Source: Minisyncoccota bacterium (GTDB taxonomy: Bacteria; Patescibacteriota; Minisyncoccia; Phycocordibacterales; JABAAK01). Taken from it: DNA of 64,000 nucleotides. Below the pieces are notes generated by a model that was given only the letters and a program-made list of their open reading frames with translations, searched no databases and was not told the origin of the DNA. Both the position numbers and the translations under genes were made by a program. The stretch lies in the NCBI GenBank assembly GCA_965204115.1, contig OZ241963.1, positions 233,293 through 297,292 on the forward strand. Reading direction: 5' to 3'. Positions 1 to 63,044 of the stretch are shown one piece after another (position 1 is the stretch's first letter; every line of letters starts with the position of its first letter).

Positions 1-45
1 GATACACAGCATATCGGGCATGCTGGTGTTGTAATAAACAGTCAT

Positions 46-387
46 TTGGATAACTATAAAATCGTAAAACCGGAAGAGTTAGATAAAAAAATATTGAATA
101 TATGTGAATCAGAAAAGATAATAACTTTCATATTTCTTGCTGATCGTAAATTAACTCAAGAGGTTTTTTGTGAATATATTCATAAAACAATAGCAGGTTA
201 TGTTGAGAAGGTACCAAACGAATTGCATGGAACAAGTATTCCATTAAAAATTGATAAATACGATTCGCTCTTTGCTGTTTCACTGCCATGGAATGAGATG
301 CCGGAAACACCAGTATTTGGTTCTATGACATCTATCTCGATTGACGGATCGCAATTGATGCTGGGAATAAAAAGAAAAACGACTTAA
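46..387 (+). CDS. hypothetical protein (113 aa), first gene of the AT-rich island
   Basis: Intact ORF in the track; AT-rich codon usage matches the neighbouring genes; no recognisable motif. Confidence 0.35.
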   Translation: MDNYKIVKPEELDKKILNICESEKIITFIFLADRKLTQEVFCEYIHKTIAGYVEKVPNELHGTSIPLKIDKYDSLFAVSLPWNEMPETPVFGSMTSISIDGSQLMLGIKRKTT

Positions 388-444
388 ATAAGGGCAGGGA
401 AGGATAAGATAAGTACTGTTTGAAAGTTTCTGCAGAGTGATACA

Positions 445-1020
445 ATGAGCATGAGTATGATTAGGGATAAAAAATTAAAAGAAGCGGCGGAGATGGGAGA
501 AGGAATTGCAAGGGAGTTCAATCCCGAAACAAACATCCCCTTCCCTTTTGAGGAGATAGTAAAAAGGCACAGAGATTTAGAGTTGAGATCTGGAGATTTA
601 AGCAATGCAGGTTCGCCAATTAGTAATGACTTGTCAGGATTAATTTTGTATGACGATAGCGAGAAAAAATTTGTCATTTTGATTGAGGAGAGTAAGCCAA
701 AAAATAGAAAGTATTTCACGATTGCGCATGAATTGGGGCACTATTTCTTGCATAAGGAAGATCTAAAAGAAAAAAGTTTGGTGGTTGATGGAGATGCAAC
801 ACTCTATAGATTGGATAATGGACTGAGTAACATACAAGAATCACAGGCAAATTACTTTGCTGCTTCACTGTTAATGCCGGAGGATAGGGTTAGAAAAGCA
901 TGGAAGGCTTTTAATGAGGATGTCGAAAAATGTGCGGAATTATTTGATGTCTCTCTATCTGCTATGAGTATACGGGTGGATATATTAGACTTGAAGTATG
1001 AGTATGAAGACAGGAGATAA
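445..1020 (+). CDS. ImmA/IrrE-family (COG2856-like) zinc metallopeptidase
   Basis: HEXXH motif in the context FTIAHELGHYFLHKED, typical of ImmA/IrrE peptidases. A TTGAAA-N15-TACAAT promoter-like element overlaps the first ATG, so the real start may be M3 or M5 and the transcript may be leaderless. Confidence 0.55.
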   Translation: MSMSMIRDKKLKEAAEMGEGIAREFNPETNIPFPFEEIVKRHRDLELRSGDLSNAGSPISNDLSGLILYDDSEKKFVILIEESKPKNRKYFTIAHELGHYFLHKEDLKEKSLVVDGDATLYRLDNGLSNIQESQANYFAASLLMPEDRVRKAWKAFNEDVEKCAELFDVSLSAMSIRVDILDLKYEYEDRR

Positions 1021-1357
1021 AACACGCAAAGAACTTATAGACCATTTTCGAGAATTTGGGAAAATGTTTGAAAAGTCAGATGCAGGCTCAGGGAGCTTTG
1101 ACGAGCGAATGCAAGATTTAGGTGTGCAGGAAAAGGAGAGTGTTATAAAGTGGAGGGATAAATTTTCGAAGTTTATGACAAGGTTTTTAATGGCGCAGTA
1201 TTTTTTTATCCTCTTGTTTTTATTTTTGCAAGGATTTAAGATAGCAGGATTTCACTTAGATAACTATATTTTTTATATCCTAATAGGTGGAACTTTGGTA
1301 CAAAGTTATTTTCTAGTTAGAATTATATTTCAATATCTTTTTTCTTCGAAAAAGTAA
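998..1357 (+). CDS. small protein with a C-terminal two-TM hydrophobic region, overlapping the end of the ImmA-like gene
   Basis: ORF overlaps the upstream gene by 23 nt, suggesting translational coupling. The C-terminus YFFILLFLFLQGFKIAGFHLDNYIFYILIGGTLV is strongly hydrophobic. Confidence 0.35.
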   Translation: MSMKTGDKTRKELIDHFREFGKMFEKSDAGSGSFDERMQDLGVQEKESVIKWRDKFSKFMTRFLMAQYFFILLFLFLQGFKIAGFHLDNYIFYILIGGTLVQSYFLVRIIFQYLFSSKK

Positions 1358-1524
1358 TGTGCATCGCATGTCTCACAATACTTTTTCAGACCCAACGCAA
1401 TCCTATCAATGGCACCTGAGAGTATAAACTTCTGCAATCTGCCTGTTTTCGCTTACGCAACACTAGTGAAGTTTGCGAAAACGGCGGATTTCCTTATACG
1501 CACGACCCAATATATTTTTATTGT

Positions 1525-3204
1525 TTAATTTGTATTTCCTCTTTCTTTTAGTCTTTGAAAAAGAAAGCCAAGCACATCGGAATCTAATCTGTGAGGGAAC
1601 ACAGAAAGAAAAAAAGGGATAAATTCAGGAAATCTTTTTATTGAATCTGGAAGTGTTCTGCCATCAGAAGAGTTTGACTCATCAATCAGGTCCTTCCAAC
1701 TTTTTTCTTTTTTAGGGATTTCTGTCCTGCACTCTCCTTTCTCCGATTGCATTAAATAGTAGTCATATTTGTTATCAAAAACAAACTCCTCAAAATATAT
1801 AAATGATATTTCTCTCCATTGGTCAGATATAAAATCTTTTTGATTTAATCGTGCCATCATTTCTATAATAGGTTTTAGATAATGTGAATACTGTTTACTC
1901 TGATGTTCAAAAGGCTCTTGAGGTACGCCAAAAAACCTATTAACTACAAAATTTAAAACAAAATTTAAATCAAAGTATGGAGGAAGTAGTCCAGTTTCGC
2001 TCTCTGCATTTCTACCATTGTATTTAATTATTTCACTTATAGCGTGTTCCACCAAACTAACACCTTCCTCTTTGCTTTCATCAGAACATGTCAACATCAA
2101 CGCAAGAAGTATGAGAGGCAATAATCCTCCTTCGCCATATAAAAATATACTGCCCCTGTATTTATCAATTATGTCTTTTTGTAGAATATCTTTTATTTGA
2201 ATATTTTTTTGACTGATAACTTCAGACACTTTGAGCGAAAATATCATTGATACAGCACCATGATTGCGAAATGGGATTAAGTTTATTTCGGTTTGTGGTA
2301 ACTTAATCTTATCAAAGGTGTCCCCTGAAAGCATGGCAAGTCCCTTGCTTTCCACCTCTAATTCCAATTTTTTTGCTGTACTTAACATGTCCCCCCATAC
2401 AAGGTTATATGATTTTAACCAATATTTTTCTGCAAGATTATATCTATCAACCAAATAAAAAATTAATGAGAGCAATAAGGTCATAACTCTTATCACAGAA
2501 ACATGATTTTCTTTCTCCCTGTATGGTCCGGTGATCATAGTCATATACAAAATTGCAGCGGATACATCTCTTTTTCGTTTTTCTTTTGCCCTTTCCTCAT
2601 TGATGCCAAGTATTTGACATAAGAATGGAAATATCTCTGACAAATCTACAAAACTTGTTCCATCTGCAAAAATTAAATTGCTGAGGGTTTTATATGCCCG
2701 CGCATCTTGAGGTAAAACCTCTACGGCAATTTCTTGGAACCCTTGTAACAAATCTCCTCTTGTAAGAACTCTGAGTGGCGTGTTTTTCCACCTTCCGTTA
2801 TTTAAACCATTTATATCAGCCCTTACGCTATCATCTATATTTCCATTTGTTACTAAAAATGATATGTGCTTCTTGTTTTGATCTATGTTTGGATGAGCAA
2901 TGGGTATTTCAATTAGCACTTCAACTTCTGGCTTAACCTCAGTGCGCCAACGATGCAGATTTATATTTCCACCTTTCAGTTGATATGCACAAGGCGCTCC
3001 ATTAAAGTCAACGGCAACAACATCTTTTCCTTGTTCAAAGTTGGTATTCTTTATTTCATATTTAACAGCATACCCTTGGAATGAAAGCCACTCGCAAAAT
3101 AATGACTGATAGCTGAGTTCGTTTACTGAATCCAGCCAGTGTTCGATAACCCTTTGTAAAAAGGGTTCGTTTGTTTCTTTTTGTTTTACTGTTTTTTTGC
3201 TCAT
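1525..3204 (-). CDS. large hypothetical protein (559 aa) with an N-terminal PD-(D/E)xK nuclease-like motif; last gene of the four-gene defence-like operon
   Basis: N-terminal EWLSFQGYAV ... KDVVAVDFNGAPCAYQLKGG fits the E / hhhD / (E/Q)xK spacing of restriction-endonuclease-fold domains. The remainder has no recognisable motif. Separated by 2 nt from the upstream gene. Confidence 0.4.
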   Translation of the reverse strand: MSKKTVKQKETNEPFLQRVIEHWLDSVNELSYQSLFCEWLSFQGYAVKYEIKNTNFEQGKDVVAVDFNGAPCAYQLKGGNINLHRWRTEVKPEVEVLIEIPIAHPNIDQNKKHISFLVTNGNIDDSVRADINGLNNGRWKNTPLRVLTRGDLLQGFQEIAVEVLPQDARAYKTLSNLIFADGTSFVDLSEIFPFLCQILGINEERAKEKRKRDVSAAILYMTMITGPYREKENHVSVIRVMTLLLSLIFYLVDRYNLAEKYWLKSYNLVWGDMLSTAKKLELEVESKGLAMLSGDTFDKIKLPQTEINLIPFRNHGAVSMIFSLKVSEVISQKNIQIKDILQKDIIDKYRGSIFLYGEGGLLPLILLALMLTCSDESKEEGVSLVEHAISEIIKYNGRNAESETGLLPPYFDLNFVLNFVVNRFFGVPQEPFEHQSKQYSHYLKPIIEMMARLNQKDFISDQWREISFIYFEEFVFDNKYDYYLMQSEKGECRTEIPKKEKSWKDLIDESNSSDGRTLPDSIKRFPEFIPFFLSVFPHRLDSDVLGFLFQRLKERGNTN

Positions 3205-3206
3205 AA

Positions 3207-3809
3207 TTAATCAATAATTTTTCTTGATTTGACATCTGCCATGTGTTCTTCAAATTTTTTATCTAGTATCTCTTCTTTTTTTCTATCAAATTCAGCTTTT
3301 TCCTGAGGTGTTTGTTTCTTTTCTATCTCCATAAGCCTCTTAGAGACGGTTGGGTGTACAATTAATGACTGTTCGGATGGTTTATTCCTGTCGTCATTGT
3401 GAAAATAAATTTTTACATTTTCCATTCCCTTAAGGATGATGTCTGGACCAACCTCTGAAACATTTACTATGTTTCCGCTGTCAGCCATACTCTTTGCTAT
3501 CGCCTGGATCGCATCTCCCTCAATTTGATTTGCCACATCTGCAGACATGTCGGAAAACATGGTAAGTACATCCTCTGAAGACATATTTCTCATTTGCTTA
3601 GAGGAAATTGACATCTTGGATGAAGCTTCGTTTAGGTGTTCTACACTGTGTGTTCCATCCTCATATAAAACTCCCGTTTTATCGCCCTCATATAAGGACT
3701 GTTTAGGAACCATTGCGAGCAGAGGAGATTTTGTTTTTATCTCTTGTCTTATTGAAATATCGACGAAAATCCTTAGTTTTTCTTTTGCTTTTGGAAAATC
3801 TGGTATCAT
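3207..3809 (-). CDS. hypothetical protein (200 aa), third gene of the operon
   Basis: Intact AT-rich ORF, 27 nt downstream of the DUF262-HNH gene and 2 nt upstream of the 559-aa gene; no recognisable domain. Confidence 0.4.
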   Translation of the reverse strand: MIPDFPKAKEKLRIFVDISIRQEIKTKSPLLAMVPKQSLYEGDKTGVLYEDGTHSVEHLNEASSKMSISSKQMRNMSSEDVLTMFSDMSADVANQIEGDAIQAIAKSMADSGNIVNVSEVGPDIILKGMENVKIYFHNDDRNKPSEQSLIVHPTVSKRLMEIEKKQTPQEKAEFDRKKEEILDKKFEEHMADVKSRKIID

Positions 3810-3836
3810 TCTTGTATTTTACCATCTAACTATACT

Positions 3837-4928
3837 TTATTTTCCAGATTTTCTTCGATTACATTCTTTATATAACATCTGACAGTTTTCTGCGACTGTT
3901 TTACCGCCTTCATGCCAAGGGGTGATGTGGTCGGCTTCCATGTCTTCAATTTCAAAATGCTCTTCACACACCGGGCAGATACCTTTTTGTCTTTCGTATG
4001 CTTCACGCTTCATATTGGGAGTAAAGGCACGGATTGAAAGAGATTTCTCTTGGCGAGTTAAAACATATGGGTAGATGCCTGATTTATCCGTGACATCTTC
4101 ATCTTGCATGAGTCTGGTAATTTCGGTTTCCAATTTTTCGGCATTCAGTTTTTTATCTTTGAATTGGTTGTACAAATCGCCCCATTTTACACCTTTCATT
4201 TCATTACGATAGTTAGTGAAAACCTTGCGCACCCATGTAATGACACTTTGAAAATAATCCCAGAGTTCATTTGCATTATTATCATGCTGGTGTTTTGCCA
4301 TATAGTCTGCGACCTCCCCATCATTGATCCACAAAAGAGCGGTTTCCAAGTACTCTTGCCTGATGGGTGAACCTTTTATGAGTGACCCTCCATCATTTGC
4401 TAAAAGATACGCTGCACAACCTGTTTTACTGAATTTTAATTTTGCGTCAGAGAGCCATGGGCCGGTGTAGACCGCGTTTCTGATCTCTTGATCCGTTAAT
4501 TTTTCGCCTGCGATATTAATGGTAAAGAACCAATCCAAACGCTCTTTGTCTGTGCCTTCACAAAAGTAAATCATAAGTTCGTAGTCAAGAATCTGTTTCT
4601 GCTCTTCGGCAGTGAGATTGTGAAAAAAGCGGTCGTTGAGCAAGAAGTCACCATTTACATACTGTCCGATACTGATGGTACGCTGCTGTCCGTCCAACAT
4701 TTCATAGGTGCCATCTCCCTTAACCATCCAGTACATCACATTAAGGGGGAAATTTTGTTTGACGGTCTCAATAACCGCATTGCGCTGTTTGTCGTCATAG
4801 ACAAACTCTCTCTGGTATTTTGGACGAACATCCAATTTGCCATCATAGGCAACAACGCCTTCTTCTTTACTATCTTTATACCCTTTAACCACATCACGAA
4901 CTTTGATTTTCTCTAAGTCAATTTTCAT
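3837..4928 (-). CDS. DUF262 (GmrS/ParB-like NTPase) + C-terminal HNH nuclease fusion; GmrSD-like / type IV restriction-like protein
   Basis: DUF262 signatures KYQREFVY and DGQQRT. C-terminal HNH: CPVCEEHF...DHITPWHEGGKTVAENCQMLYKECNRRK. Confidence 0.7.
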   Translation of the reverse strand: MKIDLEKIKVRDVVKGYKDSKEEGVVAYDGKLDVRPKYQREFVYDDKQRNAVIETVKQNFPLNVMYWMVKGDGTYEMLDGQQRTISIGQYVNGDFLLNDRFFHNLTAEEQKQILDYELMIYFCEGTDKERLDWFFTINIAGEKLTDQEIRNAVYTGPWLSDAKLKFSKTGCAAYLLANDGGSLIKGSPIRQEYLETALLWINDGEVADYMAKHQHDNNANELWDYFQSVITWVRKVFTNYRNEMKGVKWGDLYNQFKDKKLNAEKLETEITRLMQDEDVTDKSGIYPYVLTRQEKSLSIRAFTPNMKREAYERQKGICPVCEEHFEIEDMEADHITPWHEGGKTVAENCQMLYKECNRRKSGK

Positions 4929-4929
4929 A

Positions 4930-5979
4930 CTATTTTTTGTTTTTGATTAAGATACGCTTAAACTTCTTTTTTCCACTGATGTAAATTGCATTTGCAAACG
5001 AATATACACCGTCCGCTCCAACCGATCCTACATGACCAATGATTTCAAATTGTTTGGGGTTGTATTTGTCCACAAAGGTTACAGGCACACCCATTACACC
5101 ACTATAATCCATCGGGATGTCAGTATATTTGTCTATATTGATTGCATCATAGTTATCATATTTTGGATATTCTTTTGGAGTGTATTTTTTATATAGAGTC
5201 AATTCCTCGTGACGCTTGGCGACATCTAAATTGGTAAACCATAAGATGCTGCCCATACTGAAGTACTTAATACCGTCCTCAACTTTGATTCTGGATTCGG
5301 TTTGAATGTCGTAATCCTCAGGCACTTGAAACCATTTGGTTCCGCCGTTATCGTACCCCAACCATAATCGGTTTTCCTTGATAAACTTAAAAATTTCTTT
5401 GTAAGTAATGGCGTTTTGATTCCCTAGGATCAAAAATTCCTTTTGGTGTTCCATTAGTTGTGCAACATAGTCTCGAAAAAGCGAAAACGGTGGATTGGTT
5501 ACCACTATATCTGCCTGTTTAAGCAGGCTGATACACTCATCGCTGCGAAAATCTCCATCACCTTTAAGCGGTGTGGCAACATTGGCGTCTTGTCTTAGTA
5601 ATTGCTTAACATCTCCTAAACTAACCGCTCCGTCATTATTGAGGTCTTTAACTTCGTTAATCTCAATTCTAAATGGCTCTTTTCCTTCTGGCTTCAATCC
5701 TTCTATCTCAACGAGTGGTAATTGCCCGCCAGCAATTGGTGATCTTATGTAGCTTGTGGCAATGAGTTTTTTAAGTCCTAAGGCATTAAAACTGGCAGCA
5801 AAATACTTGAAGAAATTACTTTCATAAGGGTCATCGCAGTTACAATATACAACCTTACCGCGGAACTGCTCTTTATAGTGTCTTAGTTCTTTTTCAATGT
5901 CAACAAGTTGAGTGTAAAACTCATCCTTTTTTGCCTTAGCTGCCTGGTGAAGACCTGTATTGTTCACTTTTGTATCCAT
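4930..5979 (-). CDS. N6-adenine DNA methyltransferase (NPPF catalytic motif IV)
   Basis: IVVTNPPFSLFRDY is motif IV ((D/N)PP(Y/F)) of amino-MTases. N-terminal DEFYTQ and CNCDDPYES resemble the EcoRI-methylase-like adenine MTase family. Stop lies 1 nt before the next gene. Confidence 0.65.
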   Translation of the reverse strand: MDTKVNNTGLHQAAKAKKDEFYTQLVDIEKELRHYKEQFRGKVVYCNCDDPYESNFFKYFAASFNALGLKKLIATSYIRSPIAGGQLPLVEIEGLKPEGKEPFRIEINEVKDLNNDGAVSLGDVKQLLRQDANVATPLKGDGDFRSDECISLLKQADIVVTNPPFSLFRDYVAQLMEHQKEFLILGNQNAITYKEIFKFIKENRLWLGYDNGGTKWFQVPEDYDIQTESRIKVEDGIKYFSMGSILWFTNLDVAKRHEELTLYKKYTPKEYPKYDNYDAINIDKYTDIPMDYSGVMGVPVTFVDKYNPKQFEIIGHVGSVGADGVYSFANAIYISGKKKFKRILIKNKK

Positions 5980-6175
5980 ACATTAATATGGTACATTGCT
6001 TTTACTTGTTTTTATTATTCCGCATTGAACATATAAAGCAGTAGCGCCCCTTGTGGGGCCTGGTTCGTATTTGGGAGCATGAATTAAAAGGAGACGGCAA
6101 AACCGCCACAAGAAAAATCTAAAAGTTTTTCAAGTATTAGCTGCTTATTCACCCTCACATTATTTGTTCAAGTCT

Positions 6176-6772
6176 TTACCTTTCTGGCGGACGAGGATGC
6201 AAACTACTTACAGGTATGTTTTTTTCTCCCAGTACGACATCCCTTAATCCTATTGCCATTATCACAGCAAATTGCTCAACCTCCCTTCCTTCACTAAACA
6301 GGTATTCTTTTATTTTCTTTAACTCGGGTGAAGCGTCATTTTTACTTTTTAATATTTCTTTCACAATATCTTTTGATTTTTCCTGTATATCAAAAGCACC
6401 GTCAACATTTTTAAACTTTTCTATCAGGATGTCCTTATTTTTTTTAATGTAGTCTTCAGCACCACTGTTACGAAAAGTTTCCTTTCCAACATCAGTGAGG
6501 GACAGAGGGCTTTGGGTTGCAACTTCTTGCCTTCCTTTCATTTGATTTAACTCTTTTGAGTTTTCTTTTACATCATCCTCAAGGGTTTTTATTTTTTTGT
6601 CCGCATTTTCCAAATTTGTCTCAAGTACACTTAATTTTACTTTCATTGTTACTAACGCAACAACAAGTGCTATAGCTGCAGACACTCCGAGGTCAATAAG
6701 CGAAGGCAGAGAGTTGGTATTACTGGCAGCAGATTCAGAGGTAGATTGAGCTATTACTTCAATAGGAATCAT
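6176..6772 (-). CDS. membrane-anchored coiled-coil protein, hypothetical
   Basis: N-terminal TM helix (LGVSAAIALVVALVTM) followed by a K/E-rich heptad-like sequence. Confidence 0.35.
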   Translation of the reverse strand: MIPIEVIAQSTSESAASNTNSLPSLIDLGVSAAIALVVALVTMKVKLSVLETNLENADKKIKTLEDDVKENSKELNQMKGRQEVATQSPLSLTDVGKETFRNSGAEDYIKKNKDILIEKFKNVDGAFDIQEKSKDIVKEILKSKNDASPELKKIKEYLFSEGREVEQFAVIMAIGLRDVVLGEKNIPVSSLHPRPPER

Positions 6773-6983
6773 ATGTTCAGTTTAACATAAACCAATTGAT
6801 TATACAAGAATATGTGGACACTGGTGACATGATTGATATGTTGAGTACATGATGCTGGATAACCTATAAATGGCGGGTTAATTAAAGTCTATATTTCTGC
6901 TACCCTGTTGCACGGAGCGGAGCGGAGATGGTGCAGTGTTTGTGTACACAATCGCTGCACTGTTTTGAATGGGCGAGGAGGGT

Positions 6984-7673
6984 TTATAAAATAGATGTAA
7001 ATAGGTTGTGGTATTTATCAAGATAGTGAGACAATTCTTTTCTCTTGTACTGCATGATGTAGCGTGGGTGTTCTAATGAATGCACCCTGTTGAACCATTT
7101 GTACTCTTCATTCAGTTCGGTAAAAAATTTATAATTTTTTCCGGATCCGAGAATGATGACGGCATCACTTCTGACACCACATTCAAACTGTGCAAGCAGT
7201 GAATTGACAATAAACGGCTTAAGCATTGTCTGCATTTCTATGCTGTCATAGTAATTATAGTTCTTGCCATGCTGTGTGAAGCCAATTGGCGACACTGCGG
7301 TGAGAAAAAAATTGCTGTAAAATGTTTCTGCTCCTCCGAATTTTTCAATAAAGGTGTACAGGAACTTTGATGAGAGTTCACGACGCTCCTTAAATGTGTT
7401 TGGAATATCACAGTGCTCAGAGAGTGCGATTGGATCGGTGAAAGGGATTCCGGTAACACCTGATCCGAATCTCCCCGGGTTAATACCCAGAACAAAAACC
7501 CTTTCATTGGTATCGTAAAAATACTTTTTTAAAAACATCTTTACATACTTAAAAATTTCCCCATCTTTATGCGGCTCTATTGCTTCAACACCACTTATCG
7601 TGATTTCAGGGACACATACATTTTCGAAGAAGTCAATAATTTTGTCATAGAAAGTTTTTTGGCTTGATAACAT
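6984..7673 (-). CDS. uracil-DNA glycosylase superfamily protein, SMUG-like
   Basis: LGINPGRFGSGVTGIPFTDP closely matches the SMUG1 catalytic motif GMNPGPFGMAQTGVPFGE. A second His-containing motif (HPRY) lies near the C-terminus. Confidence 0.55.
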   Translation of the reverse strand: MLSSQKTFYDKIIDFFENVCVPEITISGVEAIEPHKDGEIFKYVKMFLKKYFYDTNERVFVLGINPGRFGSGVTGIPFTDPIALSEHCDIPNTFKERRELSSKFLYTFIEKFGGAETFYSNFFLTAVSPIGFTQHGKNYNYYDSIEMQTMLKPFIVNSLLAQFECGVRSDAVIILGSGKNYKFFTELNEEYKWFNRVHSLEHPRYIMQYKRKELSHYLDKYHNLFTSIL

Positions 7674-7837
7674 GTCATTCCTCCGTGTTCACAATGATCA
7701 AGTGTTTTATAGCAAAAACACTCCACACCTCATTTTATCACACAGATAAATCTTTCAGAGAGACGGTTTGTCCAACTTGTTTACCTATTCCCTAAAACAT
7801 AACAAGGGGCAGCCGATGGCTGCCCCCATAAATTTGT

Positions 7838-8230
7838 TTATGCTTCTACACCTTCATCATCTTCGGACGACTCATCCTGCTCATCATATCCTACTTTCCA
7901 TAGAGAAAATATCCAGGGAAGGAATAAAAATATCATTATTATGTGAATATAGTAGGCACCATACTTACTCATTTCATGAAGGCCTCTCGGATCAAGCGAT
8001 TCGCCAGACATGTCAATGAATATCACAGGAGGTAATCCGAAAACTATAATCACATAATGCAGTGCTAACGGTATCCAAGATATGACAAGGAAATGATTAA
8101 TCAGCCATCCAGCAAAACGACCGAGTTTGGAGGACGGGTATCTTGATGTCGTGATAGCATAGCATGCAACACCGACCGCAAACAAGATGTACAACTCTTG
8201 TGGTGCAAAGTGGTACTTCACACTTTCCAT
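7838..8230 (-). CDS. integral membrane protein, hypothetical (130 aa)
   Basis: Multiple hydrophobic helices with an acidic C-terminal tail. Confidence 0.35.
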   Translation of the reverse strand: MESVKYHFAPQELYILFAVGVACYAITTSRYPSSKLGRFAGWLINHFLVISWIPLALHYVIIVFGLPPVIFIDMSGESLDPRGLHEMSKYGAYYIHIIMIFLFLPWIFSLWKVGYDEQDESSEDDEGVEA

Positions 8231-54400: not shown

Positions 54401-55750
54401 TTAGTAGCTCTCCAGCTTTTTTAGTTCGGTGTGTGTCCGGAGTTTCTCAAGAGCGCGGGACTCAATTTGCCGTACCCGTTCTCGGGTGACACCGAGTGCC
54501 ACGCCGATTTGCTCTAGGGTGTGCTGTATCCCGTCCTGCAAACCATGCCGCATTTCTATCACTTGCCGCTCCCGCTGGGAGAGGTCCTTAAGAATACCCT
54601 GCACCTGATCTTTCAGGATGTCTTTCGCGACCATTTTTTCTTGCGTTTCCTGGTCGTGATCCTCAACGGTATCGGAGATACGGGTGTTCCCCTCCTCATC
54701 ACTGCCGCCCAATGGTCGCTCTAATTGTACAATGTCTTGCGATATCCTTCGTATCATATATACCTTTTCCGGATCAATACCGAGCTCGGTTGCCACCTCC
54801 TGCACCGTCGGTGTGCGTCCTAAGTCTTTTTCCAGTTGCACCATTGCTTTCTGGTAACGCTGGGTTGTCTCGGACATATGCACCGGTATGCGGATGGTTC
54901 GTGATTTATCCGCCAGACCCCGAACGATTGACTGCTTAATCCACCAGGTCGCATAGGTTGAAAATTTGAAACCGCGCTGCGGCTCAAACTTATCTACTGC
55001 CTTATACAAACCCTCTGATCCTTCCTGCACCAAATCAAGCAAGCTGAGATCGCGGCTTCTGCCGGCGTAGTTTTTCGCGATAGAAACGACCAACCGCAAA
55101 TTAGCAGTCGCCAGTTTATTACGCGCCTCAAGCCCCTCTTCTAATATCTTCTTTTCTTTTGCCGGAGTCAGCCGCTTTCTGTTCCTCTTCTCTACTATAT
55201 CCCGCCTTGCCATTATCTTTTTTCCGAGCTCCTGCTCCTCTTTCGCGTTTAACAGCGGATACTTTCCGATATCCCGCAAGTACATCTGTATGGAGTCATA
55301 TGAAGAGGAATCAAATTCAGGGAATCTCGGATCCGATTCTAAGCTCACCTCTTGTAATAATCCTTCATTCTCCACCAAATCGACACAGCTTGTTTTTAGC
55401 ACGCCTTCAATGCAGCCCCATATATCGCCGGTGTTATCACACTCCTCTAGCCCGATATACTCTAATACCTCTTCTGAGGTCACATACCCCTTGCTCTTAC
55501 ACTTGCTGATCATGCTCTTGATTTTTTTCCGGTACTTGTTCGGAATTGATTCATACAACTTCTTCTCGTGCTGCGCACTGTCAATTAAATCCTCAAGTGT
55601 TTCCACCGGCTTGGTATGCTGCTTTTTTACCGCTTTTTTTACTTTCTTTGCCGTGCGCTTCTTTTTCACACCCACCGAACGCTTCTTTTTTACTGTTCGT
55701 GTTTTCTTCTTCGCAGCCGGCTTTCTTTTTTTACTCGCTTTTTTTTTCAT
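54401..55750 (-). CDS. rpoD: RNA polymerase sigma-70 factor RpoD with a Lys-rich N-terminal tail
   Basis: Region 1.2 YLRDIGKYPLL, region 2 TYATWWIKQSI, region 4 LEQIGVALGVTRERVRQIESRAL. The first ~45 residues are K/R-rich. Confidence 0.85.
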   Translation of the reverse strand: MKKKASKKRKPAAKKKTRTVKKKRSVGVKKKRTAKKVKKAVKKQHTKPVETLEDLIDSAQHEKKLYESIPNKYRKKIKSMISKCKSKGYVTSEEVLEYIGLEECDNTGDIWGCIEGVLKTSCVDLVENEGLLQEVSLESDPRFPEFDSSSYDSIQMYLRDIGKYPLLNAKEEQELGKKIMARRDIVEKRNRKRLTPAKEKKILEEGLEARNKLATANLRLVVSIAKNYAGRSRDLSLLDLVQEGSEGLYKAVDKFEPQRGFKFSTYATWWIKQSIVRGLADKSRTIRIPVHMSETTQRYQKAMVQLEKDLGRTPTVQEVATELGIDPEKVYMIRRISQDIVQLERPLGGSDEEGNTRISDTVEDHDQETQEKMVAKDILKDQVQGILKDLSQRERQVIEMRHGLQDGIQHTLEQIGVALGVTRERVRQIESRALEKLRTHTELKKLESY

Positions 55751-56129
55751 TATCTTCTCTTAAAAGTCCGTTACAAATATGTAGATTTATTGTATCATAT
55801 TCACTCCTACCACGCAGACATCATTTCTGGAAAACTTCTGGAAAACCCCTCCCGCCCACATTATCAAAAAACTCCTACCTCACTTGACATCTATACATTT
55901 TATAGCATGCTACGAGCAACTCAAACTTGGTTTTTATACGGTCACTAAAAATTATTTTCATTATGTAAAAAAGAAAATCCCCTCGGCTGACCGAGGTTGT
56001 TCGTAATAAATTATTAGAACTCTCTTTGTCTAACCGAGGGGTTGTGAGAACACCCTCTGATGTTACTTTCTCTTTTGAGAAAGATAGAGAGTGCATAAAG
56101 AATATTGCTGCTGCCCCTGAGCAGTTAAT

Positions 56130-56525
56130 TCTTCAAGTGGCTTTCGGCCACCACAAAACAGCGTAAGCTGTCTGACAACACGAGGCTGTCGTATAGAGTA
56201 ACTACAATGAGTTACTACAAACGGGGTAAACTGTTCGGCAACACGAGGTCGCCGGTAGTATCGTGGCTTTCGACCACGAGCAGTATAGAGCCGCTTAACA
56301 GCACCGAGGTGTTTTTGATCATTATGGTTTTGAATCACAATGACAGGGTAAGTTATTTCAGCAACGCAAGGTTTCTTCTCTCATGGCTTTCACCACGAAG
56401 TGCTTACCGTCCATTGAGATAACACGAGGTTATCTGAATGTCGTGGCTTTTTAGAACCACGAACAGCTAACTGTCTGACAGCAGATGACTGCCGTCTTAT
56501 CATTGCGGCTTTCGGCCACACGGTA
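56130..56525. repeat. array of at least 5 imperfect tandem repeat units, each with a GTGGCTTTCG(G/A)CCAC-type hairpin and an upstream (A)ACACGAGG box
   Basis: Hairpins at 56137-56151, 56263-56279, 56383-56399, 56442-56462, 56506-56520. ACACGAGG-like boxes at ~56180, ~56243, ~56303, ~56365, ~56423. Spacing is irregular (~60 or ~125 nt). Confidence 0.5.
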
Positions 56526-57098
56526 ACAGAATAAATCTTGTTACCCAGTAACAGTAGTGTGTTGTACACTTCAAATTTTTTGAAGTGCTGTTGTTGTTGT
56601 GTTACATCATAAAACTAATTATAATGTTAATGTGAAAGAACAGTTTGCAAGAGAAAGAAAATTTTTCTTGCAAAGGATCAATTGCAGGGTAAGCAGGCTC
56701 CACCCATCCGGCGTTACGCCGACGTTATGGTGGATGCGTGCGCTTATTGTGTTGTACCCGTTTATCGCAATCAAGTACTTAATTATATATAAGTGCTTGT
56801 GCAGCATGGTTGCTTTTTGCAATCTCTTGCTGCGAATAATTGTGATTTTTTCCAGGCAACTTTTACATTCCCTGTCTGATAAATATATTAAACCATATAT
56901 CACCTGCCTGACAACTCTATGTGGAAAACGGTGCCTACCGCCGAAAGCAACTCAAAAATACCGTGTAATTATGGATGATTTTTACCTCTATCTCCGCATG
57001 GTCATTACCCTTCACTTATACCCTGTTGCAGGTCGCCGGAGGATGCCATGATTCGGGTCCTCATTATATGTATAAAAATATGCAATACTACACACACC

Positions 57099-57171
57099 GC
57101 CATCTTAGCTCAGTCGGTAGAGCACTCCCATGGTAAGGGAGAGGTCGCCGGTTCAAATCCGGCAGATGGCT
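57099..57171 (+). tRNA. tRNA-Thr (anticodon GGT)
   Basis: Acceptor GCCATCT/AGATGGC, D-arm GCTC-AGTCGGTA-GAGC, anticodon stem CTCCC/GGGAG with loop ATGGTAA, T-arm GCCGG-TTCAAAT-CCGGC. Confidence 0.8.
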
Positions 57172-57221
57172 CAACGCTGTCGGCAGCTTGTGGTATACTG
57201 AATGCACTTACAGAAAGTAGT

Positions 57222-59313: not shown

Positions 59314-61095
59314 ATGGCAATACAAAAAAGAAACTATAAACGATCACAGCAAACACGATCAAGAGGCAAAACAGCTTCTGTAAAAAAACCAAAAAAAGTA
59401 TTTATTCCGAAACCGAGCAGAGGTGAGATTCGCACGCTTATATTCGGCGGCATATCAGAAATCGGTAAAAATATGTACGCTATTGAGTACAACAACAATA
59501 TCATTATATTGGAGTGCGGCACCATGTTCGGCGAGCGCAGTACCCCGGGTATTAGTGCGATTATGCCGAATATCCAATACCTCAAAAACAGAAAGCAGGA
59601 TGTTAAGGCGCTCATTGTCACCGACGCTTCAATGAAGCACATCGGTGCTATTCCTTATGCTATTCAGGATGTGGGCAGTCCGACTATATATACCAGAAAG
59701 CTCACTAAGGCGATTATAGAGAACCACCAAAAAACTCTCCGCAAAAAGCCGACTACAACATTCCATGAAGTTGAGGAAGCGGAGTCAGTTACTATCAACG
59801 ATGAAATCACGCTTCACTTCTTTGGTGTCACCAATGATGCGCCGAGTACTCTCGGTGTTCTTATAGAGACCCCTGTTGGCTGCATCGCCTACACCGGCAA
59901 CCTGAAGGTGAGCCACAATAAAGAGGTCATTCGCGCTGAAGAGGAGAAAGTGTTCAAAGCGGCGAAAGAGAAGGAGGTTGTTCTCTCTCTTGCTGACTCC
60001 GTCGGCTCAGAGCGCCCCGGCTTTGCTATCACTGACCAGGAGATCGCTGAAGAAATTGAACAGATGATACAAGAGGCGCCGTACCGCGTTATGACCTCTC
60101 TCTTCCCTTCCCAGATAAAAAGGAACGCGATGATACTGGAAAAAGCTCTCAAAGCCGGCAAGAAGACCTATATAGAAGGCGCACTTCTGTTGGAAAACCT
60201 CCAGACCGCCTGTGACCTCGGGATCGTGCAAGTGCCGAGAGAAGTGCTCATTCCCATACAGGAGATGAAAAAGGAGGAGGATGACGCTGAAAAAGTATTC
60301 ATCGCTTTTACCGCTGAAGAGAATGAAATCTGTGAAGCATTAGAGAGCATCTCTCGGGAAAGTTATCGATATACCTCCGTCATCACGAAAGATACTGTCA
60401 TATTTCCCTCACCGATGATTCCCGCGAATGCGCAGGCAATACAAAATCTCAAAGACCGTCTCTCTCGCCTCGGTGCGATAACCCGCTCGTATGACACAAG
60501 CGATGTCAGGGGCAGCGGACATGCTAACAAGAGCGAGCTCCGCTGGATGCACCAGCTCCTTGACGCGACATTCTTCATTCCTTTGCAGGGCTATCACTAT
60601 ATGCTTAATGCGCACACGCACATCCTTCGTGAACTTGGTATGGCACAGGACTCATTCGTTATACCTGAAAATGGTGTCATAATAGATATTAGCCCTGACG
60701 GTAAGGTCATCAAAAAACAAAAACAGCGGATGGAGACAACTGCAGTATCTGTTGACGGGCACACCCTCGCCCCGATACAGGAGGTTGTGGTGCAGGATCG
60801 TAATACACTTTCACAGGAAGGTATATTTATCATCATTGTCTTTGTTGACCGTAAAACACTTGAAGTTAAAAAATCCCCTGATATTATCTCTCGCGGTTTT
60901 ATATACTTGCGGGAATCACAGGACCTCATCGCGCGTGTCCGCATTGTCATTAAAAAAGCCGCTGAAAAAGAAATGAAAGAGACCGGTAAAATAGAAATTG
61001 ATAAAATGAAGAAAGCAATACAGAAAGAAGTGCAGACCTTTTTGGTGAATGAGACCAACAAACGACCGATTATTGTTCCGGTTATATTCACCTAA
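59314..61095 (+). CDS. RNase J paralog with a degenerate metallo-beta-lactamase active site (HxHxDH replaced by TDASMKH)
   Basis: Full RNase J architecture (MBL, beta-CASP with SGHAN, C-terminal domain). Aligned against the downstream copy, SHAHLDHIGG becomes TDASMKHIGA. Confidence 0.7.
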   Translation: MAIQKRNYKRSQQTRSRGKTASVKKPKKVFIPKPSRGEIRTLIFGGISEIGKNMYAIEYNNNIIILECGTMFGERSTPGISAIMPNIQYLKNRKQDVKALIVTDASMKHIGAIPYAIQDVGSPTIYTRKLTKAIIENHQKTLRKKPTTTFHEVEEAESVTINDEITLHFFGVTNDAPSTLGVLIETPVGCIAYTGNLKVSHNKEVIRAEEEKVFKAAKEKEVVLSLADSVGSERPGFAITDQEIAEEIEQMIQEAPYRVMTSLFPSQIKRNAMILEKALKAGKKTYIEGALLLENLQTACDLGIVQVPREVLIPIQEMKKEEDDAEKVFIAFTAEENEICEALESISRESYRYTSVITKDTVIFPSPMIPANAQAIQNLKDRLSRLGAITRSYDTSDVRGSGHANKSELRWMHQLLDATFFIPLQGYHYMLNAHTHILRELGMAQDSFVIPENGVIIDISPDGKVIKKQKQRMETTAVSVDGHTLAPIQEVVVQDRNTLSQEGIFIIIVFVDRKTLEVKKSPDIISRGFIYLRESQDLIARVRIVIKKAAEKEMKETGKIEIDKMKKAIQKEVQTFLVNETNKRPIIVPVIFT

Positions 61096-61112: not shown

Positions 61113-63044
61113 ATGCCAGAAAAAAGAAAAGTTACAACAAAAAAAACAATAGAGCGTACCGATAAGGATGCGGTCAATAAGAGTAAAAGTGCTCCTGCAA
61201 AAAAGAGTGCGTCAAAAAAAGCGACGAAGAAGCGACCGGATGCGCCGAAGAAAAAGGTGCCGTCAGGGCTCTATCAAAAACCCCTTCGCCGTCAGGGCGG
61301 ACTCATCGGCTCTCGAGAACTCACCGGCGGATTTGATGCTGAATCAACCTTGAATATACCACGACAAGAAAAAGGAGCCATCCGTGTTCTCTTCTTTGGC
61401 GGTGTCGGAGAAATCGGTAAAAATATGTACGGGATTGAGTATGAGGATGAGATCGTGCTCCTGGACTGTGGCATGAAATTTGCCCAGAACGACACTCCCG
61501 GCATTGACTTTATTGTTCCGAATATTCAATACCTTGAAGAACGGAAAGAGAAAATAAAAGGGCTTGTTATCTCTCACGCCCACCTTGATCACATCGGCGG
61601 TATTTCAGTTGTTATGAACAGGATCGGCAACCCGCCGATTTTCTCCCGCAAACTCAGCATAGAACTTATCAGGAATAGGCAGGGCGAATTTGAAAACAAA
61701 GAGGCGATTAAGTACCATGAGGTGGAGAAGAGTACTGTACTGAAGCTTAGCGATAATCTCACCCTCACCTTTTTCTCTGTTACGCACACCATCCCCGACT
61801 CAATGGGTATTGTTATAGACACCCCTGTCGGCGCGATTATCTTTACCGGTGATCTCAAGCTTACTCACGAAGATGGTGTTGTCGGCCCTGAAGAGGTTAA
61901 AGAATTTGCCGCGATTAAAAAGAAAAATGTTCTCTTAACGATGGCAGATTCAACCAATGCGGAACGCCCCGGCTTTTCCCTTCCGGAAAAGCGTGTGGTG
62001 GAAACCATCGGTAAAATAATTAAAGAAACCAAAGGCAGGGTTATCCTTTCCGCGTTTTCAACGCAGATAGAGCGCACCATCAGAGTTATTGAGCATGCCA
62101 TTGAAAATGGCAGAAAGGTAATTGTGCAGGGCAGGTCAATGATTACTAATCTTACCATCGCCTCGGAGTTGGGGCTTCTTAAAATACCACTCACTGCGAT
62201 TATCCCGGCTGAAAAAATGGGAGATTACCCGAAGGAGAAACTTCTCGTCCTTGCAACCGGCGCTCAGGGAGATAATTTTACCGCGATGGACAGGATGTCT
62301 CGCGGCACCCACCGGCATATTAAACTGGACAGTAAAGATACCGTTGTCTTTTCCTCCTCGATTATTCCCGGCAATGAAGAGCCCGTACAAAACCTCAAAG
62401 ACCGCCTTTCCAAACTCGGCGTGGATCTTATCACCTACCAAACAAGTGATGTCCATTCCAGCGGACATGCTAACCGTGATGAGCTTAAATGGATTCACGA
62501 AAACATCGGCGCAAAATTTTTCACCCCTATCCATGGTTACCACTTTATGCTCTCTGCGCATGCCCAAATTCTTCGCGATATCGGTATGCCTGAAGAAAAT
62601 ATCATTATTCCCAACAATGGCTCCATTGTGGATATTAATCCTGATGGGTCAGCAATTACTATGCAGGAGTACACCATGCCCACAGAGGTTATTGTTGTGG
62701 ATGGTAACGCCGTCGGAACTGCGCAAGCCGTTGTTCTTAACGATCGCATAACCCTTAAAGAAGAAGGTATTTTCGTTGTTATTGTTCTTATCAACAAGCG
62801 GCTTAAAAAAGTTAAAAAATCTCCCGATATTATATCCCGTGGCTTTGTCTATCTTAAAGAATCTCAACAGCTTATTAATCGTTCCCGTATGATTGCTCGT
62901 CGCTCTGTAGATCAATCTCTTCGTCGTGGCAGAATGATAAACCTTGACGCAATAAAACGAAACCTCATTCGCGAAACCCAAAATTATCTCTATAACGAAA
63001 CGAAAAAACGCCCGATCATCGTCCCTGTCCTCTTTGTTTCTTAG
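61113..63044 (+). CDS. rnj: ribonuclease J with a Lys-rich N-terminal extension
   Basis: VLFFGGVGEIGKNMY, intact ISHAHLDHIGG motif II, SGHAN beta-CASP motif. The first ~70 residues are K/A-rich. Confidence 0.8.
   Translation: MPEKRKVTTKKTIERTDKDAVNKSKSAPAKKSASKKATKKRPDAPKKKVPSGLYQKPLRRQGGLIGSRELTGGFDAESTLNIPRQEKGAIRVLFFGGVGEIGKNMYGIEYEDEIVLLDCGMKFAQNDTPGIDFIVPNIQYLEERKEKIKGLVISHAHLDHIGGISVVMNRIGNPPIFSRKLSIELIRNRQGEFENKEAIKYHEVEKSTVLKLSDNLTLTFFSVTHTIPDSMGIVIDTPVGAIIFTGDLKLTHEDGVVGPEEVKEFAAIKKKNVLLTMADSTNAERPGFSLPEKRVVETIGKIIKETKGRVILSAFSTQIERTIRVIEHAIENGRKVIVQGRSMITNLTIASELGLLKIPLTAIIPAEKMGDYPKEKLLVLATGAQGDNFTAMDRMSRGTHRHIKLDSKDTVVFSSSIIPGNEEPVQNLKDRLSKLGVDLITYQTSDVHSSGHANRDELKWIHENIGAKFFTPIHGYHFMLSAHAQILRDIGMPEENIIIPNNGSIVDINPDGSAITMQEYTMPTEVIVVDGNAVGTAQAVVLNDRITLKEEGIFVVIVLINKRLKKVKKSPDIISRGFVYLKESQQLINRSRMIARRSVDQSLRRGRMINLDAIKRNLIRETQNYLYNETKKRPIIVPVLFVS

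Follow-up and report, generated by a model that had tools for sequence, protein, structure and literature searches.

A hairpin array upstream of rpoD as the expanded central domain of a predicted structured noncoding RNA in a candidate phyla radiation clade

We analysed a 64,000-nucleotide stretch of genomic DNA from a Minisyncoccota bacterium (assembly GCA_965204115.1, contig OZ241963.1, positions 233,293 to 297,292), hereafter the window, in which a reading made from the sequence alone had described imperfect tandem hairpin repeats at window positions 56130–56525, upstream of the sigma-70 gene rpoD. Comparison with related genomes shows that this array is the middle part of a larger, predicted stand-alone gene for a structured noncoding RNA (ncRNA), which shares the minus strand with rpoD and runs from about 56879 to 55970. 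The sequence-only reading had seen just the middle of this conserved gene and had missed the rest. The explanation that we favour, with a confidence somewhat above even, is that the array is an RNA-level expansion segment whose extra units are mainly structural, set within a previously undescribed ncRNA.

Relatives were taken from a graded series of RpoD homologues, whose contigs are related metagenomic genomes. Eight orthologous loci carry the ncRNA: the window and those that we label L082, L087, L088, L090 (identical to L093), L092, L083 and L095. The window, L082 and L087 have an expanded form, and the other five species have a short form of 520–590 nt.

A conserved promoter and terminator enclose the array

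The predicted transcript begins downstream of a sigma-70-type promoter (TTGTCA-N18-TAATAT, 9/12), both elements of which are kept in the alignment of the eight orthologues, with zero substitutions between the window and L082. It ends in an intrinsic terminator that is likewise kept in all eight; in L092 one stem pair has gone from G-C to A-U, a compensatory replacement. Some 120 nt separate this terminator from the promoter elements of rpoD itself, further downstream. Both L084 and L097 have the rpoD promoter repeat intact, along with a comparable −10 element, and L096 has the repeat in part; none of these three relatives has the ncRNA upstream of rpoD. In L088, an insertion of about 700 nt (L088 positions 2293–3000), encoding an opposite-strand open reading frame (ORF) of 134 amino acids without a Pfam match, separates the ncRNA terminator from the rpoD promoter, and L083 retains the ncRNA without the tRNA and SecG neighbours. 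The conserved promoter and terminator, the separate rpoD promoter and the L088 insertion therefore argue for a stand-alone gene rather than an rpoD leader. A leader or attenuator of rpoD is ruled out by rpoD's own conserved promoter after the terminator and by the intervening opposite-strand ORF of L088.

Several measures bear on the strand. The single-sequence fold has a z-score against shuffles of −6.1 on the minus strand and −2.6 on the plus strand, and the consensus fold energy of the array is −160 kcal/mol on the minus strand versus −143.5 kcal/mol on the plus strand. Alignment cells of the array hold 54 G-U and 4 A-C combinations when read as minus, and 35 and 9 when read as plus. The conserved promoter and terminator, together with this preponderance of G-U over A-C pairs, assign the array to the minus strand.

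The 3′ end of the predicted RNA can be drawn in two ways. The 3′ arm of the terminator, CCGAGGGG, can pair either with the local CCUCGG, forming the terminator, or with an upstream invariant CCCCUCGGUUAGAC (both within 55967–56058, minus strand); the pairing of CCGAGGGG with CCCCUCGGUUAGAC gives the longer helix and encloses about 35 nt. The segment CCCCUCGG of the nearly invariant 3′ domain is able to compete with the 5′ arm of the terminator for CCGAGGGG, and a switch between alternative structures at this end is possible.

A DnaA-box-like site, either mere context or a regulatory site, lies just upstream of the ncRNA promoter; in L088 and L092 it matches TTATCCACA perfectly. It shares the motif GTTWTCCASA with the rpoD promoter region: the motif occurs just upstream of the ncRNA −35 element (56920–56929) and twice (55825–55846) upstream of rpoD's extended −10 element, so that these two promoters account for three of the four copies in the window, where 0.5 would be expected. 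It is also kept in relatives that lack the ncRNA. The common motif suggests that one factor may control both the ncRNA and rpoD.

Compensatory changes support the predicted helices

The 5′ domain is the best supported part of the RNA. For the alignment of its eight sequences (A1), RNAalifold gives 55 pairs in eight helices, in which 95.5% of the cells are paired, compared with 38–45% when the partners are slid against one another. Compensatory double changes occur in 19 of the 55 pairs, against two to four in the slid controls, and none of 500 shuffles matched the observed pairing values. The five short forms, compared over their central and 3′ parts, show compensatory changes in 13 of 64 pairs, including pairs of the A hairpins described below (G-C to A-U, C-G to U-A) and of the hairpin Py that bounds the array on its 3′ side. 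In the helices of the array itself 98.7% of the cells are paired, with six double changes (160 pairs, three close sequences) compared with zero to three in slid controls. The covariation analysis across relatives that had been proposed with the first description of the repeats thus yielded helices that covary above controls, and these comparisons show the predicted transcript to be a structured RNA.

The array is a string of diverged hairpin units

The hairpin repeats are real and far above chance, and the five GTGGC-type hairpins first reported all lie where the sequence-only reading had placed them. When the whole window was searched with the 15-mer GTGGCTTTCGGCCAC, allowing at most one mismatch, three sites were found, all within 56137–56519; two more matches at three mismatches are at chance level. 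The box AACACGAGG occurs exactly at 56177, 56240 and 56421, three times within 250 nt, and just once more in the window, at 11835. Degenerate versions lie at about 56301 (GCACCGAGG) and 56362 (AACGCAAGG). Each hairpin had been said to follow a box ACACGAGG by 12–15 nt; this spacing stands for two hairpins with an exact box and one with a degenerate box, and fails for the rest. Copies are spaced at about 60 nt and multiples of it (63/181/59 and 126/180/62).

On this period the array divides into seven units, a to g, of 58–64 nt each, from 56521 down to 56091. The units are 57–71% identical to one another, compared with 56 ± 3.5% for shuffled units, and Tandem Repeats Finder did not call the array because they are too diverged. 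Some of the hairpin variants appear to hold a C-A mismatch when read on the plus strand; these are G-U wobbles on the minus strand.

In the window and in L082 the segment folds into a string of about 17 hairpins of three classes: A-type (GUG..A-rich loop..CCAY), B′ (a 6-bp stem with a C-CNYGY-G apex) and B-like (GACAGC-UUAC-GCUGU). Among 12 copies of the B′ hairpin, paralogues and orthologues together, the 6-bp stem is kept in 11–12, and its outer positions are occupied by several types of pair. One pair in unit b is U-A in the window, U-G in L082 and C-G in L087. The hairpins of unit c sit inside a further stem, GGUAAG/CUUACC (56400–56408 with 56347–56354), which makes a three-way junction. 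In the terminal A hairpin, compensations of G-C to A-U and C-G to U-A are found in L092, L095 and L090. The coordinates of all units and hairpins are collected in Table 1.

The array grew from a short ancestral cassette

Between the bounding hairpins Px and Py, the short forms hold three elements: a hairpin A1 (GUGGCCGAAAGCCAC), then a hairpin B (GACAGC..GCUGUC), then a hairpin A2 (RUGGCCGAAAGCCAY). The central domain measures 158–205 nt in these five species versus 427–492 nt in the expanded clade, with 492 nt in both the window and L082. L087 lacks exactly one 60-nt period, leaving six units versus seven in the window and L082. Because the RpoD tree places the expanded clade within a set of short-form lineages, we take the expansion to be derived. 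These alignments show the array to be a derived tandem amplification within the predicted RNA, with copy-number polymorphism among relatives.

The added units have diverged within limits. Relative to the window, the array has 0.057 substitutions per site in L082 and 0.111 in L087, versus 0.139 and 0.256 at fourfold-degenerate sites of rpoD, which puts the array at about 0.4 of the synonymous rate; the corresponding values for the 5′ domain are 0.021 and 0.062. Changes in the stems are mostly wobble-preserving or compensatory, as in the series GAUAA/UUAUC to GAUAA/UUGUC to GACAA/UUGUC and in the replacement of GUAACU/AGUUAC by GUGACU/AGUCAC. The two ancestral A hairpins, at the ends of the array, are invariant, while the internal units change and their loops drift between close relatives. 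The pattern of substitution shows that the predicted duplicated units have been kept as helices, with purifying selection on those helices.

The B′ loops of units b, e and f (56417–56435, 56236–56254 and 56174–56190) are identical (CCUCGUGUU) in the window genome only. This identity hints at either sequence-specific use of the loops or micro gene conversion.

The RNA is confined to a narrow clade and absent from Rfam

The predicted ncRNA is previously undescribed, is absent from Rfam and occurs in one clade of the candidate phyla radiation (CPR). Its distribution is narrow, a single Kaiserbacteria-like clade. The organism of the window is itself assigned to a Kaiserbacteria-like CPR lineage by its gene content and by named RpoD homologues. 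Scanning with Rfam 15, whose families include 6S, RNase P, tmRNA, SRP, OLE, GOLLD, ROOL, CsrB/Rsm and riboswitches, returned only tRNAs at gathering score in the window, nothing credible at E ≤ 10 over 55700–57200, and nothing at E ≤ 1 over the five short-form loci. The Rfam comparison suggested by the sequence-only reading therefore matched no family to either the long or the short form.

Searches by model and pattern gave a similar picture. A covariance model of the 5′ core (R1) was run over the window and 22 other loci, nine of them CPR rpoD loci, and recovered no additional copy. The best relatives recovered by an RpoD search of genome contigs were only 46% identical, and an exact look-up of the window's RpoD met no recorded protein. 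The 3′-domain pattern, run against metagenome contigs, returned the species of L090 again plus one chance match in a coding region. Of three patterns run against viral contigs, two had no match and the third had 20, none recognised by the covariance model; the search therefore gave no phage homologue. A literature search for described CPR or Kaiserbacteria ncRNAs found nothing relevant except the paper on TIGR-Tas systems.

Four relatives with roughly 80–92% RpoD identity (L084, L085, L096 and L097) have no ncRNA upstream of rpoD, which is abutted by dnaG in L085 and by ftsA in L097. The RpoD tree groups L097 inside lineages that bear the RNA, which implies loss or relocation of the ncRNA.

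Genomic setting

The intergenic gap that harbours the array spans 1,348 bp (55751–57098). It is flanked on one side by rpoD, on the minus strand and encoding sigma-70 regions 1.2, 2, 3 and 4, and on the other by a plus-strand tRNA-Thr(GGU) gene (57099–57172). The gap had been described as an 850-bp gene desert upstream of rpoD; the placement beside rpoD holds and the size does not. Genes near the array encode sigma-70, a PIF1 helicase, SecG, SBP_bac_5 and RNase J. Two RNase J paralogues lie in tandem (59314–61095 and 61113–63044) a few kb from the ncRNA, the first assigned by Pfam and the second by sequence similarity only. At the far end of the window, positions 1–8000 have a low GC content (0.355–0.39 compared with about 0.50 elsewhere in the window) and carry defence- or restriction-type genes (Table 1); this stretch is probably an acquired island.

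Table 1. Predicted features of the ncRNA gene, the hairpin array and the low-GC stretch, in window coordinates
Feature	Position	Strand	Description
Whole predicted ncRNA, ~910 nt	55970–56879	minus	Orthologue lengths 521–917 nt
DnaA-box-like site GTTTTCCACA	56920–56929	minus	Just upstream of ncRNA −35; kept in 8/8 orthologues
ncRNA promoter	56884–56914	minus	−35 TTGTCA (56909–56914); −10 region TGGTTTAATATA (56884–56895)
5′ domain	56551–56879	minus	8 helices, including long-range CAGGG/CCCUG and irregular hairpin 56690–56746
Px hairpin	56522–56546	minus	GGGUAACA...UGUUACC; 5′ boundary of array; homologue in all short forms
Unit a	56461–56521	minus	Ancestral A1-B; invariant in window, L082, L087
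Unit a, hairpin A	56505–56519	minus	GUGGCCGAAAGCCGC
Unit a, hairpin B	56477–56496	minus	GACGGCAG-UCAU-CUGCUGUC
Unit a, small B-like hairpin	56462–56475	minus	
Unit b	56397–56460	minus	
Unit b, A-type hairpin	56442–56461	minus	CGUGGUU-CUAAAA-AGCCACG
Unit b, B′ hairpin	56417–56435	minus	AGAUAAC-CUCGU-GUUAUCU
Unit c	56339–56396	minus	
Unit c, A-type hairpin	56382–56397	minus	GUGGU-GAAA-GCCAU
Unit c, B′ hairpin	56361–56375	minus	AAC-CUUGC-GUU
Unit d	56278–56338	minus	One compensatory U-A to C-G change
Unit d, 9-bp hairpin	56318–56344	minus	GUCAUUGUG-AUUCAAAAC-CAUAAUGAU
Unit d, irregular B′	56297–56313	minus	ACACCUCGGUGCUGUU
Unit e	56219–56277	minus	One 60-nt period covering most of the unit missing from L087
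Unit e, A hairpin	56262–56278	minus	CGUGGU-CGAAA-GCCACG
Unit e, B′ hairpin	56236–56254	minus	CGGCGAC-CUCGU-GUUGCCG
Unit f	56155–56218	minus	A-U to G-C compensatory change in L087
Unit f, hairpin	56197–56216	minus	AGUAACU-CAUUGU-AGUUACU
Unit f, B′ hairpin	56174–56190	minus	GACAGC-CUCGU-GUUGUC
Unit f, B-like hairpin	56156–56173	minus	AGACAGC-UUAC-GCUGUUU
Unit g, terminal hairpin A	56137–56151	minus	GUGGCCGAAAGCCAC; ancestral A2; invariant in clade
Py hairpin	56097–56134	minus	GAAGAAU...CUGCUC-AGGGG-CAGCAG...AUUCUUU; 3′ boundary; several compensatory pairs among short forms
Conserved 3′ domain	56020–56058	minus	AGAGGGUGUUCUCACAACCCCUCGGUUAGACAAAGAGAG; nearly invariant
Intrinsic terminator	55967–55996	minus	CCUCGG-UCAG-CCGAGG (CCUCGGUCAGCCGAGG), then U-tract GGAUUUUCUUUUUU
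rpoD promoter region, outside the RNA	55789–55846	minus	GTTTTCCAGAA twice (55825–55846); extended −10 TGATACAAT (55789–55797)
GTGGC-type hairpin	56137–56151	plus (reading)	GTGGCTTTCGGCCAC
GTGGC-type hairpin	56263–56277	plus (reading)	GTGGCTTTCGACCAC
GTGGC-type hairpin	56383–56396	plus (reading)	ATGGCTTTCACCAC
GTGGC-type hairpin	56443–56460	plus (reading)	GTGGCTTTTTAGAACCAC
GTGGC-type hairpin	56505–56519	plus (reading)	GCGGCTTTCGGCCAC
Peptidase_M78/IrrE-like protein	445–1020		Low-GC stretch
GmrSD_N+HNH	3837–4928		Low-GC stretch
EcoRI-type adenine methylase	4930–5979		Low-GC stretch
UDG-family protein	6984–7673	minus	Low-GC stretch

An expansion segment, a protein sponge or another array

In the explanation that we favour, an ancestral A-B-A hairpin cassette was duplicated in tandem to give seven diverged units of about 60 nt within an RNA gene of about 0.5–0.9 kb. 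The invariant A-B-A core would be the functional element of the central domain, probably as a surface that a protein recognises or that makes a tertiary RNA contact. The added units would be tolerated as spacers or scaffold, folding as independent hairpins so that the rest of the RNA is undisturbed.

Several observations weigh against this account. The 5′ end of the ncRNA is an estimate from the −10 element only. For the core domains, neither folding energy nor G-U counts tell the strands apart, and their direction of transcription follows from the orientation of promoter and terminator alone. The comparison comprises eight sequences from one narrow clade, three of them close relatives, and covariation in the array (the six double changes) is thin for this reason. 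With L087 as outgroup, the identity of the b, e and f loops was made by at least three of the eight array substitutions on the window branch. Finally, the 11-mer at the B′ apex, AACCUUGCGUU, is found both in unit c (56361–56375) and in an insertion in Px of the short-form L083 (2585–2610); this recurrence implies that the B′ hairpin may be a functional, reusable module, not drift.

A protein sponge or scaffold like CsrB/RsmZ is the alternative that we rank second to the structural expansion segment, and we regard it as possible though well short of probable. Adaptive amplification would here multiply hairpin sites, copy number would set the titration capacity, and, given the linkage to rpoD, the RNA-binding protein might act on the transcription machinery. 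Many similar hairpins per transcript are what such a molecule would offer, from two A hairpins in the short forms to six units in L087 and seven in the window and L082; the A-type hairpins of units b, c, d, e and g keep the pattern GUG..A-rich loop..CCA(Y), three B′ loops have been homogenised in the window lineage, and the GTTWTCCASA motif is common to the ncRNA and rpoD promoters. However, the ancestral, invariant CGAAA loop is restricted to units a, e and g, the other A-type loops being degenerate (CUAAAA, GAAA, AUUCAAAAC, CAUUGU), and the B′ loops differ between genomes that are 95% related. L087 tolerates the loss of the one internal unit with a canonical A hairpin. No loop carries GGA (A(N)GGA), the loops being CGAAA, GAAA, CUAAAA and C-N-Y-R-Y, and no partner protein is identifiable.

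A base-pairing regulator with multiple seeds, possibly processed, is unlikely. The B′ loops CCUCGUGUU would be anti-Shine–Dalgarno-like and pair with AACACGAGG-like ribosome-binding regions of mRNAs; CCUC is the core of the anti-Shine–Dalgarno sequence. The window genome exposes three identical loops, each on a stable stem. NrsZ provides a precedent, with three stem-loop modules of about 60 nt that have identical loops and spacer hairpins between them (PMC4253122). The array, however, shows loop identity in three of its five B′ units in the window, with different loops in L082 and L087; across the closest relatives the loop reads CCUCGCG, CCUUGCG, CCCUGCG, CCAUGUG or CCAUAUG, and B′ hairpins are mostly missing from the short-form relatives. 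Over 42 gene starts in the window, the best pairing reached −11.5 kcal/mol compared with −11.2 ± 1.7 kcal/mol for shuffled seeds. The best complement of the CCUCGUGUU loop among these starts, itself non-significant, lies in the ribosome-binding region (GAACACGGAGGAAUGACAUG) of the UDG-family gene at 6984–7673 on the minus strand.

Repeats acting at the level of DNA, whether iterons or transcription-factor sites, an oriC, or extragenic palindromes of the REP/BIME kind, are very improbable. A hairpin in DNA is identical on both strands, a DnaA-box-like sequence lies nearby (56920–56929), and the cumulative GC skew has a shallow local minimum at the array. Yet the stems vary by compensatory, G-U-preserving changes while the sequence itself is not conserved, and the repeats sit between a conserved promoter and terminator. 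The sequence-only reading had named a genome-wide REP-like element as a result that would undo its account; neither the 64-kb window nor the loci of relatives (about 7 kb each) hold dispersed copies. An oriC or iteron cluster was rejected because the 1.35-kb gap has a single DnaA-like box (the number of such boxes in the window is at chance level), because a large-scale skew switch is lacking and because the repeats are conserved as structure.

Slightly less probable still are tandem leader peptides or mini-ORFs on the plus strand (MAF...), each with a ACACGAGG ribosome-binding site, as the sequence-only reading had proposed. Openings of the form GTG/ATG-GCT-TTC and GAGG-containing boxes 12–15 nt upstream do exist on that strand, but they resolve into features of the other: the ribosome-binding boxes are the B′ hairpin loop (C-CUCGU-G) of the minus strand, and the MAF codons are the complements of stem and loop of GUGGYCGAAAGCCAC. 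In relatives the boxes drift away from GAGG, with CGCGAGG, CGCAGGG, CACATGG and CATATGG in the two closest. The start codons are buried in 5-bp stems, and promoter and terminator point the opposite way. In L087 frameshifts, stop codons or deletions disrupt the plus-strand ORFs over the array, one mini-ORF being lost and another lacking its start and holding a stop codon. No ORF on the transcribed strand is common to the eight RNAs, and coding potential was thereby rejected for both strands. Among the options first listed, small-RNA modules remain a live one, as RNA modules on the minus strand.

Least probable is an array of guide RNAs of the CRISPR or TIGR-Tas type. TIGR arrays occur in CPR bacteria, with repeats that begin with UG, are A-rich in the middle and end with CCA, and are built of 36-nt units (edge repeat, 9-nt spacer A, loop repeat, 9-nt spacer B) adjoining a Tas gene with a Nop domain (PMC12045711). 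The present array shares the tandem arrangement, the CPR host, a (G)UG..A-rich..CCA element in its A-type hairpins that recalls the TIGR loop repeat, and an end near a downstream terminator (PMC12045711). Nevertheless, its period is about 60 nt rather than 36 and lacks alternating 8–12-nt repeats with 9-nt spacers, its units are 57–71% identical and irregularly spaced, its would-be spacers are conserved between species and paired in helices rather than variable, and it is embedded in a larger conserved RNA. A scan of 30 window ORFs, together with the annotated flanks of relatives, turned up neither a Nop-domain nor a cas gene. CRISPR arrays consist of near-identical direct repeats of 25–36 nt with unique spacers of regular size between them, usually close to cas genes; the first judgement that the present repeats are no such array is borne out.

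What the RNA may offer its host

Patescibacteria (CPR) have highly streamlined genomes of less than 1 Mb, and to our knowledge almost nothing has been described of their regulatory RNAs. For this reason, a covariation-backed RNA of 0.5–0.9 kb that is absent from Rfam is a concrete new object of study. Its position is fixed beside the gene for the housekeeping sigma factor, and the cassette has been caught at three stages of amplification (two A hairpins, six units, seven units), a natural experiment on the modular growth of an RNA that informs which hairpins have a function and which are only tolerated.

We would suggest, tentatively, a bolder reading: a new family of large ncRNAs in CPR bacteria whose central domain is an evolvable platform for the display of hairpins, with duplication tuning hairpin number for a partner. 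Such a platform might offer GUG..A-rich..CCA and C-CNYGY-G hairpins to a sponge or scaffold protein or to mRNA targets, and a protein partner may be linked to the transcription machinery or to the control of growth, given the fixed site upstream of rpoD and the common GTTWTCCASA motif. If the RNA is a sponge or scaffold, it would add a layer of post-transcriptional control in organisms that are credited with very few regulators; if the array is an expansion segment only, it would be a tidy, modest case of RNA structural evolution.

Comparison with known systems

By analogy, the closest functional counterparts appear to be the CsrB/Rsm sponges, NrsZ and expansion segments of the ribosomal RNA (rRNA) type, and membership in any of these is not supported. 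In architecture the predicted ncRNA also resembles OLE, GOLLD, ROOL and raiA, being a multi-domain RNA of 0.5–0.9 kb with covariation support, GNRA-like A-rich loops and a variable periphery. It adjoins a tRNA gene, as GOLLD and ROOL commonly do. Unlike these families it is narrow in distribution and has no prophage context, and it gave no match to their Rfam models even at E ≤ 10. We know of no description of internal tandem hairpin amplification in them.

Like CsrB, CsrC and RsmX, RsmY and RsmZ, the ncRNA has many similar short hairpins, in a number that varies with lineage, and its own promoter and intrinsic terminator. It differs in loops (CGAAA and CNYGY) that lack GGA and drift between close relatives, in having no match to the corresponding Rfam models and no known CsrA-like partner, and in that its repeats are an insert in a much larger RNA with conserved, non-repetitive domains. 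NrsZ of Pseudomonas resembles the array in its tandem modules of about 60 nt, each a stem-loop with a common loop sequence, and in its alternating spacer hairpins; it is a shorter RNA (about 226 nt) that consists of the modules only, has identical loops and has a known base-pairing target (PMC4253122).

The expansion segments of rRNA and the peripheral helices of RNase P and tmRNA are like the array in being lineage-specific helices that are inserted at a fixed point of a conserved fold, maintained as helices yet free in sequence, and polymorphic in length. In contrast to rRNA, the host RNA here is not universal, and the array arose by the tandem duplication of an existing, probably functional cassette.

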